From: Candidatus Bathyarchaeia archaeon
GTDB lineage: Archaea; Thermoproteota; Bathyarchaeia; 40CM-2-53-6
Assembly: GCA_050013255.1 (NCBI GenBank)
Contig: JBEKFP010000002.1
Span: 1 to 64,000 of the forward strand
Direction: 5' to 3'
Length of the DNA stretch: 64,000 nucleotides
The stretch's first letter is position 1. Each line of letters starts with the position of its first letter. The translations under genes and the position numbers were made by a program. Shown here piece by piece: positions 60,442-63,447 of this stretch. The notes under the pieces were generated by a model, which saw nothing but the letters and a program-made list of their open reading frames with translations, was not told where the DNA came from and made no database searches.

Positions 60442-61428
60442 ATGATTAGCAGAACGGAGGCTCTCTGTAGGTCCATGAAGGTGCTTGTAACTGGTGGAGC
60501 TGGGTTCATTGGGAGCCATCTTGTAGAAGCTTTACTGGCGCATGGCGACGATGTTGTCGCACTGGACAACCTCAGTAGCGGTAGTTTGGATAACCTGCGC
60601 GAGTCGTCAAGCAAACCTGGCTTCAATTTTGTCGAGGCAGACCTGAAGAACTTTGGCGGATGGAATGAAGTCTTGGATGGAGTGAAACTGGTTTATCATT
60701 TCGCCGCCAATCCTGAGGTAAATGTCGGCGAAACCAACCCCGCCGTGCATTACCAGGAGAATCTTTTCGCAACATTCATGTTGCTGGAAGCGCTTCGCAA
60801 GAGCAAGGGTGCAAAGCACATCGTGTTTGCCTCCACTTCCACAGTGTACGGCGAAGCGTCTAAACTACCCACCCCTGAATCCTACGGGCCACTTTTGCCC
60901 ATCTCTACGTACGGTGCATCCAAGCTAGGCTGCGAGGTTCTCCTCAGCTCATACTCATATACGCATGGGATGCGCGCTCTAATCTTACGCCTTGGCAACT
61001 GCGTCGGTTCACGAGCAAGACACGGCGTCGTAGTGGATTTTATAAAAAAGCTGAAAGCGGATGCCACCGCATTAGAGATCCTAGGCGACGGAACCCAGAA
61101 AAAATCCTACCTCCACATCGAAGACCTCCTCGACGCGGCCGGGTTCATTAGGGATCGTTTCTTATCCTCTGAACAACGTGTCGACGTCTACAACCTCAGT
61201 TCGGCGGACCAAATCACCGTCAAACGCATCGCTGAAATTGTCGCCCAACAAATGGGCCTGCATGGAGTAAAGATGAATTTTACAGGGGGCGTCGACGGCG
61301 GGAGGGGATGGTTAGGGGACGTCAAACAAATGCACCTCTCCATCGGAAAACTGCGAAGGCTGGGTTGGACTCCGAAACTCAACAGCGAAGCCGCAGTACG
61401 GAGGGCGGCGAAGGAGCTCTTGGCCTAG
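60442..61428 (+). CDS. NAD-dependent epimerase/dehydratase (likely start 60475)
   Basis: TGGAGFIGSH, STSTVYG, YGASK. Confidence 0.92.
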   Translation: MISRTEALCRSMKVLVTGGAGFIGSHLVEALLAHGDDVVALDNLSSGSLDNLRESSSKPGFNFVEADLKNFGGWNEVLDGVKLVYHFAANPEVNVGETNPAVHYQENLFATFMLLEALRKSKGAKHIVFASTSTVYGEASKLPTPESYGPLLPISTYGASKLGCEVLLSSYSYTHGMRALILRLGNCVGSRARHGVVVDFIKKLKADATALEILGDGTQKKSYLHIEDLLDAAGFIRDRFLSSEQRVDVYNLSSADQITVKRIAEIVAQQMGLHGVKMNFTGGVDGGRGWLGDVKQMHLSIGKLRRLGWTPKLNSEAAVRRAAKELLA

Positions 61429-62159
61429 TGTCTAGACCGCAGAAATCCCAACTTATCATTACCCTCCCAGTCTACAGAGACGTAGCGTTCCTTGAGAAGA
61501 CAGCTGACGCCCTCCAAGAGATCACGCCCTCTATCTCGAAGGATTTCATCCTCTTGATCGCCGAAGACGGGTCCAACTCTTCAGAAATAGTTGAGAGACT
61601 CCGAACGAAATACCCAAACATCATCTACTTTCAAAATGATCGCAGATTGGGTAGGGGGAAGGCACTGCGGGAGGCTTGGAAGAAAGTCCGAGGCAACATT
61701 TACGCCTATATCGACGTGGACCAGGCGACAGATGTCACGAGACTAAATGCATATGCGAACCTAATCAATCTACAAGGGGACTTTGACCTCGTTACTGGGT
61801 CACGGTATATTGCAGCGTCGGTAACAGCGCGCCCTTGGCTTCGAAGAACCGCATCAATTGCATACAACTGGTGGGTTCGAATGATGTTCCGGACCGGGGT
61901 TCACGACCACCAATGCGGATTCAAGTCCTTCTCACGTGAATTAGTTGAACGACTGGCCATTGAGGCCAAGAGCGATTCTTGGTTCTGGGATACAGAGGTT
62001 ATCGTTCTCGCTAGGAAATTAGGGTTTAAAGTAAAGGAAATACCGATCTACTGGACCGAGAAAAAGGGGCGAAGAACGCCCGTCAAACGTCTACTAAAGG
62101 ACATATGGCTTCATGGAATCGGGATGCTGGGCCTGTTTTACAGGATCTGGCTCTGTTAA
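61428..62159 (+). CDS. GT2 dolichyl-phosphate glycosyltransferase-like protein; last three codons supplied by the inserted element
   Basis: EDGS, GRGKAL, DVD, GSRY, DHQCGFK, WFWDTE; GTG start at 61428. Confidence 0.88.
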   Translation: MSRPQKSQLIITLPVYRDVAFLEKTADALQEITPSISKDFILLIAEDGSNSSEIVERLRTKYPNIIYFQNDRRLGRGKALREAWKKVRGNIYAYIDVDQATDVTRLNAYANLINLQGDFDLVTGSRYIAASVTARPWLRRTASIAYNWWVRMMFRTGVHDHQCGFKSFSRELVERLAIEAKSDSWFWDTEVIVLARKLGFKVKEIPIYWTEKKGRRTPVKRLLKDIWLHGIGMLGLFYRIWLC

Positions 62160-63427
62160 CTTGTCGGCGGACGTCGTTTAGTTTCATCCTCCTGTCAACG
62201 CTTTATTGTTCAGCCGAAAGAGGCCAGTCGTCGACACAACCTTGCTTGCGGTCAAGGCGGTTCAGCAAAACTATACGCCGAACAGCCAGCTACTCGCCTT
62301 GCTTGAACAGTTCCGGCAAATGGTCAACGACTCCATTAGAATCGGACTCGCCGAGAACGTTACCAGCCTCAAGTCACTCTCCACCAAAGCTTACAATCAA
62401 CTTGCAACCTACGATGTCATGAGTTACTACAAACTCTGCGCAATCAGCAAAGCCACAGGCATCCTCAAGAACTACAGGAAAACGGAACGAAGAGGTAAAC
62501 GGGTCAGCAGGCCCTACGCCCGAAGACCGCAACTCACAACATGCTACGGATTCAAAATAAGCAGCGGAAACCTCCTACTGCCCATCAAGCCGAGGAGCAA
62601 TATCAGAATCCCCCTAAATCGTCATACGTTGCAGGTTCTTTCCGAGACTCGCCTAACGGCTCGATCGGTCACCCTCACCGCGAGCACAATTACCGTGGCC
62701 TACTCGAAAGATGTCCCAACTTTGGAACCGAGCGGATTCATGGCTATAGATAGGAACCTTGACAACGTGACAATAGCCGACTCAAACGGCTCAATCACGC
62801 GGCATAACCTATCAGAGGCTACGGAAATCAAGGCCATGTACCGTGAAGTGAAATCCCATCTGAACCGTAACGATTCCCGCGTAAAGCAGAGAGTCTACGC
62901 AAAGTACGGTATGAGGCAGCGTAATCGCGTGAGGCAACTTCTCCACCTAACCTCGAAACAAATTATCACAGAAGCTAAGAGTAGTAAGTCGGCGATTGTG
63001 ATGGAACGACTGACAGGAATACGCAAACTCTACAGGAAAGAGAATGGACAGGGTCGTAATTATCACGCAAGGATGAACGGTTGGAGCTTCGCGGAGCTGC
63101 AAAGGCAGGTTGAGTATAAGGCTAGATGGGAGGGCTTGCCTGTAATCTACGTGAACCCGTATGGTACTTCAGTGAAGTGTTCGATATGTGGGTTAAGAAT
63201 GAAACCCGAAGAGAACCGAACATTGAAGTGCCGTTCTTGCGGATTCACGGTAGACCGTGACGTGAATGCTGCTAGGAATATTCTAGCGGCTGGTATGAGA
63301 GCCCTGAGGTTCGGGGCCGTCGCGCCTGCAAGTGAAGCAATGGTACAAGAACCCCAGCGTAGGGTAATCTTGAAAGTCGATGCAGACGAGTTGACCGACC
63401 GGCATCCGCCGACAAGTTAACAGAACC
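62149..63427 (+). mobile_element. Non-autonomous TnpB-only element with 23-bp IS6-like TIRs and 8-bp TSD
   Basis: TIR-L GGCTCTGTTAACTTGTCGGCGGA (62149-62171); TIR-R reverse complement GGTTCTGTTAACTTGTCGGCGGA (63405-63427); CAGGATCT at 62141-62148 and 63428-63435. Confidence 0.92.
62206..63420 (+). CDS. tnpB: RNA-guided endonuclease TnpB (alternative start TTG 62242)
   Basis: RuvC I AIDRN, RuvC II VMERL, CSIC/CRSC zinc finger, RuvC III DRDVNAARNI. Confidence 0.93.
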   Translation: MFSRKRPVVDTTLLAVKAVQQNYTPNSQLLALLEQFRQMVNDSIRIGLAENVTSLKSLSTKAYNQLATYDVMSYYKLCAISKATGILKNYRKTERRGKRVSRPYARRPQLTTCYGFKISSGNLLLPIKPRSNIRIPLNRHTLQVLSETRLTARSVTLTASTITVAYSKDVPTLEPSGFMAIDRNLDNVTIADSNGSITRHNLSEATEIKAMYREVKSHLNRNDSRVKQRVYAKYGMRQRNRVRQLLHLTSKQIITEAKSSKSAIVMERLTGIRKLYRKENGQGRNYHARMNGWSFAELQRQVEYKARWEGLPVIYVNPYGTSVKCSICGLRMKPEENRTLKCRSCGFTVDRDVNAARNILAAGMRALRFGAVAPASEAMVQEPQRRVILKVDADELTDRHPPTS

Positions 63428-63447
63428 CAGGATCTACATAGCCTAGC
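63290..63447 (+). ncRNA. Predicted TnpB omega/reRNA (scaffold overlapping the tnpB 3' end plus flank-derived guide); limits approximate
   Basis: Hairpins at 63301-63317 and 63346-63372; CTGCA/TGCAG pairing (63326/63381); position follows the known TnpB reRNA arrangement. Confidence 0.6.

Follow-up and report, generated by a model that had tools for sequence, protein, structure and literature searches.

TnpB is thought to persist in insertion sequences of the IS200/IS605 and IS607 families by restoring copies that are lost to scarless excision. Inverted repeats and target duplications are both missing from these hosts of TnpB (PMC13565253), which integrate immediately 3' of a target-adjacent motif (TAM) through a Y1 or a serine enzyme and excise precisely. 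TnpB has also been described in DDE transposons. Altae-Tran et al. 2023 (PMC10691335) reported six DDE-associated TnpB branches (DDE-1 to DDE-6) with inverted terminal repeats, together with solo TnpBs that have the same ends, and the DDE families named with TnpB are IS630 (PMC10691335) and ISL2 and IS1031 (review PMC13565253); according to the same review, DDE transposons gain little from TnpB. Here we analysed a stretch of 64,000 nucleotides (positions 1-64000 of contig 2, hereafter the window) of an archaeal genome of 2.46 Mb in three contigs (C1 to C3; genome G000, rated 100% complete), and focused on an element at 62149-63427 in which an intact tnpB gene and a putative guide-RNA scaffold are enclosed by IS6-like inverted repeats. 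IS6 is absent from the main text of PMC10691335, and the literature searched held no report of TnpB paired with IS6 or of TnpB with target duplications in archaea. An earlier note, made from the window sequence, had called the pairing unusual; for DDE transposons in general, TnpB has been published (PMC10691335). The pairing is known in outline for other transposon families, and is not reported for IS6-like ones.

Like the IS200/IS605 and IS607 systems (IS1341 group, ISDra2), the window element has an intact RuvC TnpB, a scaffold that runs over the 3' end of the gene to the right end, and a short 5' motif; unlike them, it has inverted repeats and 8 bp between the motif and its left end. It resembles the DDE-associated TnpBs of PMC10691335 in that tnpB lies in inverted repeats, its 3' end is near the transposon end (within 250 bp in that study; here 7 bp separate the stop codon from the right end) and mobilisation in trans is presumed for solo copies. 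It differs from them in that tnpB and the transposase were never found together in one element, the duplication is 8 bp of variable sequence and the candidate TAM lies outside the duplication. Eukaryotic Fanzor is likewise a TnpB relative carried by DDE transposons with inverted repeats and target duplications (PMC3627910, PMC13565253). For Fanzor, however, the TAM is taken to include a 5' duplication of fixed sequence, and the scaffold contains the 3' copy (PMC13565253); the duplication here is variable and would have to be guide sequence. The IS6 family is characterized by a GG tip, a CTGTT motif and an 8-bp duplication (PMC7986276); its review includes one passenger-carrying member, without TnpB, and the family membership of archaeal 'IS6' elements is disputed (PMC6807381). 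The elements described below share with IS26 and IS257 (PMC7986276, PMC6807381) the GG tips, CTGTT, repeats of ~15-20 bp or longer, 8-bp duplications and miniature derivatives. Classical IS6 elements are ~0.8 kb long and encode only a transposase of ~230 amino acids, whereas the transposase here has ~380-400 amino acids with a SWIM motif and a zinc ribbon, the autonomous elements are 2-4 kb long with cargo, and the window element has no transposase.

An intact tnpB gene between IS6-like inverted repeats

The element spans 1279 bp and is bounded by inverted repeats of 23 nt that match at 22/23 positions. The left repeat (62149-62171, + strand) reads GGCTCTGTTAACTTGTCGGCGGA, and the right repeat (63405-63427, - strand) is its reverse complement with T at position 3. 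The repeat ends, which begin GGCTCTGTT... and GGTTCTGTT..., read GG(C/T)TCTGTT... on both sides, with the GG tip and the CTGTT motif (positions 5-9) of the IS6 end consensus used for comparison (PMC7986276), and weaker complementarity of the ends reaches 28 nt at 89% (to 62176 on the left). Within the window, the repeat pattern was found at these two places only (0.00 expected, 100 shuffles). Directly outside both repeats lies an exact 8-bp duplication, CAGGATCT (62141-62148 and 63428-63435); the chance of an exact 8-mer at both junctions is ~1.5e-5. An empty allele, with which the earlier note had proposed a comparison, is present in the relative G014 (locus L177; 90% identical), in which the left flank, one CAGGAT(T)T and the right flank are contiguous (173/192 identities, 0 gaps). 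There, the frame of a glycosyltransferase gene runs on across the insertion site, and the more distant relatives G021 and G018 have the same uninterrupted arrangement. The element was inserted at this site with an 8-bp target duplication, and both the sequence and the empty allele bear out the earlier description of a 1279-bp element holding only tnpB, with repeats matching at 22/23 positions and a perfect duplication. In the window, this family 2 glycosyltransferase gene (61308-62159, + strand; Pfam PF00535) has had its last codons replaced by the insertion.

The sole long open reading frame (ORF) of the element is tnpB (62206-63420, + strand), and no transposase gene lies inside it. The frame opens at a TTG codon at 62206, with TTG 62242 suggested as the likely start by the alignment of relatives, and its TAA stop codon (63418-63420) falls inside the right repeat. 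The protein matches Pfam PF07282 (Cas12f1-like_TNB; E = 2.5e-24, above the cut-off) and NCBIfam guided_TnpB (131.8 bits vs. a cut-off of 100), and is related to solved TnpB and Cas12f chains. Both the RuvC residues D182, E267 and D350, read as intact in the earlier note, and the C4 zinc finger (C325, C328, C342 and C345) are invariant across 16 aligned relatives.

Copies with the same ends in this genome and in other archaea

Searching all of G000 for GG-tipped inverted ends flanked by exact 8-mers yielded eight elements whose ends are of the GGTTCTGT type and whose 8-bp duplications are perfect. Besides the window element, these are four copies of 350-725 bp, one 445-bp element and two transposase-bearing elements. 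The four miniature copies (C1:262180-262529, C1:668604-668959, C2:477462-477819 and C2:82803-83527, each with an exact 8-bp duplication) keep the right end region of the window element with the guide-RNA scaffold and have no tnpB, and partial miniature copies are located at C2:426183-426484 and C3:219790-220036. The 445-bp element (C1:681796) has similar ends; BLAST gave no link between it and the miniature copies. In all, about six miniature copies that lack the gene share these ends, and the 8-bp duplication differs from copy to copy. A second tnpB copy (C1:854024-855281; 60% protein identity) is decayed: it contains two stop codons, and its duplication matches at 7/8 positions. Among the tnpB genes of G000, only the window copy is intact and could serve the miniature copies.

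Relatives contain TnpB homologues of 45-66% identity between the same ends, each with its own perfect 8-bp duplication (L010, L011, L012, L014, L015, L016, L017, L018 and L033), and sister tnpB copies with differing perfect duplications are present in at least eight genomes. Homologues down to 33% protein identity still finish ...ACAGAACC just past the gene. The relatives carry the labels Thaumarchaeota, Bathyarchaeia, Nitrososphaera, Nitrosopumilus and Atabeyarchaeia; distant same-end copies were found in genomes labelled Atabeyarchaeia (L069), Bathyarchaeia, Nitrosopumilus and Nitrososphaerota (L074), with perfect duplications at L069, in an Asgard genome, and at L074. In a quick maximum-likelihood tree rooted at the midpoint only, 27 archaeal TnpBs with such ends were placed on one side of a long branch (100% support in the Shimodaira-Hasegawa-like approximate likelihood ratio test, SH-aLRT) and 21 bacterial and other archaeal TnpBs on the other. 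The window element is a member of an archaeal TnpB clade in which every element has these ends. Two checks proposed in the earlier note thereby came out in its favour, namely further tnpB copies with the same ends and different 8-bp duplications (in relatives, and in G000 as the decayed copy) and a clade of TnpBs bearing the terminal inverted repeats.

Some candidates were less clear. For the solo ends at C2:479453 and C1:844049 a partner end was looked for and none was convincing, and a 1659-bp candidate (C1:1228749-1230407) was rejected, having just loosely similar ends and no tnpB. An open frame of 1121 amino acids that matches TnpB (L186:3203-6565, contig 69 of G027) is not a fusion of interest; it arises where the remnant of a truncated tnpB continues in frame into a gene for an H+-pyrophosphatase. 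Two tnpB elements ~10 kb apart on contig 1 of G019 (L013 and L034) have good inverted ends and mismatched flanking 8-mers on each, which could reflect recombination between copies or intramolecular transposition.

A putative guide-RNA scaffold that shares the right inverted repeat

Comparative folding indicates that a structured RNA is conserved in the last ~150 nt of the element and that its final helix draws on the right inverted repeat. The consensus fold of 29 aligned right ends has 31 pairs, 21 of them with compensatory changes; 95.9% of the scaffold cells are paired, against 78% in shuffles, none of 500 shuffles reached any of the five observed measures, and pairing falls to 22-41% when the partners are slid by 1-3 columns. 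In the window, the putative omega-RNA-like scaffold (63268-63427, + strand) overlaps the 3' end of tnpB and reaches the end of the element. It starts with a 5' hairpin (~63268-63290), followed by helices at 63301-63317, 63324-63335/63377-63387, 63346-63350/63368-63372, 63353-63355/63362-63364 and 63390-63395/63416-63421. In the last of these (helix 6), 5/6 pairs show compensatory change, and the 3' strand lies inside the right repeat, which thus doubles as part of the fold. The 5' hairpin, which is outside the pair count, is apparently kept through changed sequence in the miniature copies inspected by eye.

Over its last ~135 nt, the window element shares ~80% identity with the miniature copies, compared with ~65% overall between the two tnpB genes of G000. 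Moreover, the reading frame of the conserved nucleotides around GTAATCCTGAAAGTCGATG differs between the window copy and L010, L011 and L033, so it is the nucleic acid rather than the protein that is under constraint. No Rfam family matched the scaffold at E values up to 5, apart from a chance microRNA match. The predicted layout is that of a TnpB omega-RNA, with a scaffold that overlaps the 3' end of the gene and stops at the right end, and with the guide expected beyond. Peculiar to the window copy is a stretch of 9 nt, GGCTGGTAT, inserted at 63290-63298, after the 5' hairpin and before the first scaffold helix; it adds three codons to tnpB and is found in 0/28 of the other aligned right ends.

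A motif on one side of the insertions

We compared 22 independent insertions with distinct duplications, oriented by the strand of tnpB or the scaffold. The motif W-T-R (TTG, ATG, TTA or ATA) lies directly 5' of the left duplication copy in 20/22 insertions (background 0.055); position -2 is T in 21/22 insertions and position -1 a purine in 22/22. In the window the motif is TTA (62138-62140, + strand), and its presence in the empty allele of G014 indicates that it is part of the target, not of the element. The left side exceeded the right in carrying the motif (12 vs. 2 discordant pairs, exact McNemar P = 0.013), and ten control elements that bear a transposase and lack the scaffold had W-T-R on 4/20 sides. 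W-T-R is a candidate TAM, located where a TAM for cutting empty sites would lie. This one-sided motif and the covarying scaffold that shares the right repeat are new relative to the earlier note. At position -4 to the left duplication, no G was seen in 21 insertions read by eye (T 10, C 6, A 5), and the candidate TAM may be four bases long, H-W-T-R.

A candidate transposase acting in trans

The enzymes of the usual TnpB hosts were not detected in G000, where neither a Y1 TnpA (PF01797) nor a serine recombinase (PF00239) matched; control genomes matched in both searches. G000 has two intact genes for proteins of ~380-440 amino acids with a SWIM motif, a zinc ribbon and a DDE domain. These proteins pass the Pfam IS6-type profile PF13610 (56-60 bits vs. 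a cut-off of 27), and their best NCBIfam match, over the full profile, is the IS6 family. The two elements concerned (C1:182371-185509, 3.1 kb; C2:559197-562918, 3.7 kb) carry several further ORFs as cargo and have inverted repeats starting GGTTCTGTCAA... or GGTCCTGTTAC... with exact 8-bp duplications. Their ends are identical to those of the window element at 15-16/23 positions, and nearly all of the outermost 8-11 nt match. In G021, which belongs to the same genus, a transposase-bearing element of 3588 bp (L064; duplication CAGGCGCT) has both ends identical at 20/22 positions to the consensus end of the tnpB elements. The transposase is present in 16/22 genomes of the genus, whose transposase elements have varied end sequences and an 8-bp duplication each, and its protein family is large (>5500 clusters, with generic names only).

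Both G000 and other genomes of its genus therefore have transposase-bearing elements with 8-bp duplications and with ends that range from related to nearly identical, and there is good support for mobilisation through an IS6-like DDE mechanism. The earlier note had predicted an IS6 DDE gene within the same repeats, and IS6-type DDE genes do lie inside related repeats in L064 and in the two elements of G000, although none in G000 has exactly the same ends. All four checks that the note proposed came out as it expected. It had also named findings that would speak against its proposal (copies without duplications, a Y1 or serine tnpA, or no DDE gene sharing the ends); instead, the homologous copies carry duplications, a DDE element has nearly the same ends, and G000 has neither kind of enzyme.

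Proposed mechanism and alternative explanations

Taken together, we consider it probable (roughly 0.72) that the window element is a non-autonomous DDE-type transposon whose IS6-like repeats enclose a TnpB gene and a guide-RNA scaffold as sole cargo, and that its TnpB cuts empty sites flanked by W-T-R. The SWIM/zinc-ribbon/IS6-like DDE transposase would move the element in trans. Transcription of the scaffold past the right end would yield a guide that begins with the 8-bp duplication and continues into the flank; in the window, the right duplication copy (63428-63435) is predicted to form the first 8 nt of a guide extending to ~63447. TnpB would then recognise W-T-R as the TAM, followed by the duplication and the flank, a sequence found at the empty site only, as the occupied site would offer just 8 nt of match before the left end begins. 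Empty alleles would be cut and repaired from the occupied copy, by which the element would be driven and retained, and the miniature copies with the guide scaffold only would borrow both proteins. The guide role assigned to the right duplication copy is suggested by the layout of TnpB systems (PMC13565253), and we regard the guide and TAM logic as a good inference.

Several observations weigh against this reading. The DDE proteins score below the NCBIfam IS6 equivalog cut-off (102-115 bits vs. 125) and have additional SWIM and zinc-ribbon domains, so the enzyme is better described as IS6-like than as a clear member of IS6; the trans mobilisation of a non-autonomous element by an IS6-type enzyme, as proposed in the earlier note, is supported with this amendment. 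No transposase-bearing element in G000 has ends identical to those of the window element, and in the 40-60 relatives covered by the search no TnpB match lay next to a transposase match, tnpB being seen in the solo form only. Left ends are more degenerate than right ends across copies. Furthermore, G023, G027 and G028 (93-95% complete) each gave 10-16 TnpB matches, of which some have perfect duplications, and no match to PF13610 (IS6-type), PF12762 (IS1595-type) or PF00665 (rve-type). The many duplicated-site copies in these three genomes, together with the missing cognate element in G000, would be expected if another, unrecognised transposase moved the element and the SWIM/IS6-like enzyme merely had similar ends. 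We consider this improbable, given that L064 combines ends identical at 20/22 positions with an 8-bp duplication, that the ends and the duplication length fit the IS6 family consensus (PMC7986276) and that the IS6-like enzyme is found in most genomes of the genus (16/22); the genomes without it are metagenome bins, from which plasmids and repeats can be absent.

The motif itself is open to a different interpretation. W-T-R was also found on the mirrored right side in 10/22 insertions, above background (0.055), which suggests a partly palindromic target preference (T-R N8 Y-A), and part of the motif may be a preference of the transposase. At its extreme, this would leave tnpB as DDE-mobilised cargo with W-T-R purely a transposase target preference and no TAM, TnpB having another guide and TAM arrangement or a role other than cutting empty sites; the mild W-T-R excess in the transposase-bearing controls would agree with it. 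This alternative is unlikely, as the left side is near saturation, unlike the right, the scaffold-less transposase elements are without bias, and W-T-R stands exactly at the place that the geometry of TnpB needs. Nested insertions are common in genomes rich in insertion sequences, and an IS200/IS605- or IS607-type tnpB element could have landed by chance in an IS6-derived miniature element. Such an origin is extremely improbable in view of an arrangement conserved across the clade down to 33% protein identity, a tnpB stop codon inside the right repeat, a scaffold that pairs with the repeat and the lack of either kind of TnpA in G000.

The reading of the element as an IS6-like transposon with TnpB and its guide as cargo can be extended to the clade, which we do tentatively and at somewhat less than even odds. 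Archaeal TnpB/guide modules would have been built into IS6-like transposons, with the repeat as the last scaffold helix, the variable duplication as the start of the guide and the TAM outside the left duplication. TAM-adjacent insertions alone would be driven and retained, and the benefit would be drive and not excision repair if the partner transposase copies without excising. TnpB as a drive would widen the accepted rationale for transposons keeping it. An archaeal clade of intact TnpBs found only inside IS6-like ends would offer a concrete, testable case of RNA-guided homing fitted to variable target duplications, in which the scaffold is fused to a transposase-binding repeat and a one-sided motif stands at the place required of the TAM. 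Compact archaeal TnpBs that need just a short, permissive TAM would be a further gain. The family also includes miniature elements that carry a guide scaffold only and would depend on two proteins supplied in trans.

Further observations

Archaeal AmoA was not found in G000, in a search run without a positive control. At two of the related loci, L074 in the Nitrososphaerota genome and L072 in a Nitrososphaera metagenome-assembled genome, a tRNA-like sequence starts ~30-50 nt past the right end of the tnpB element.

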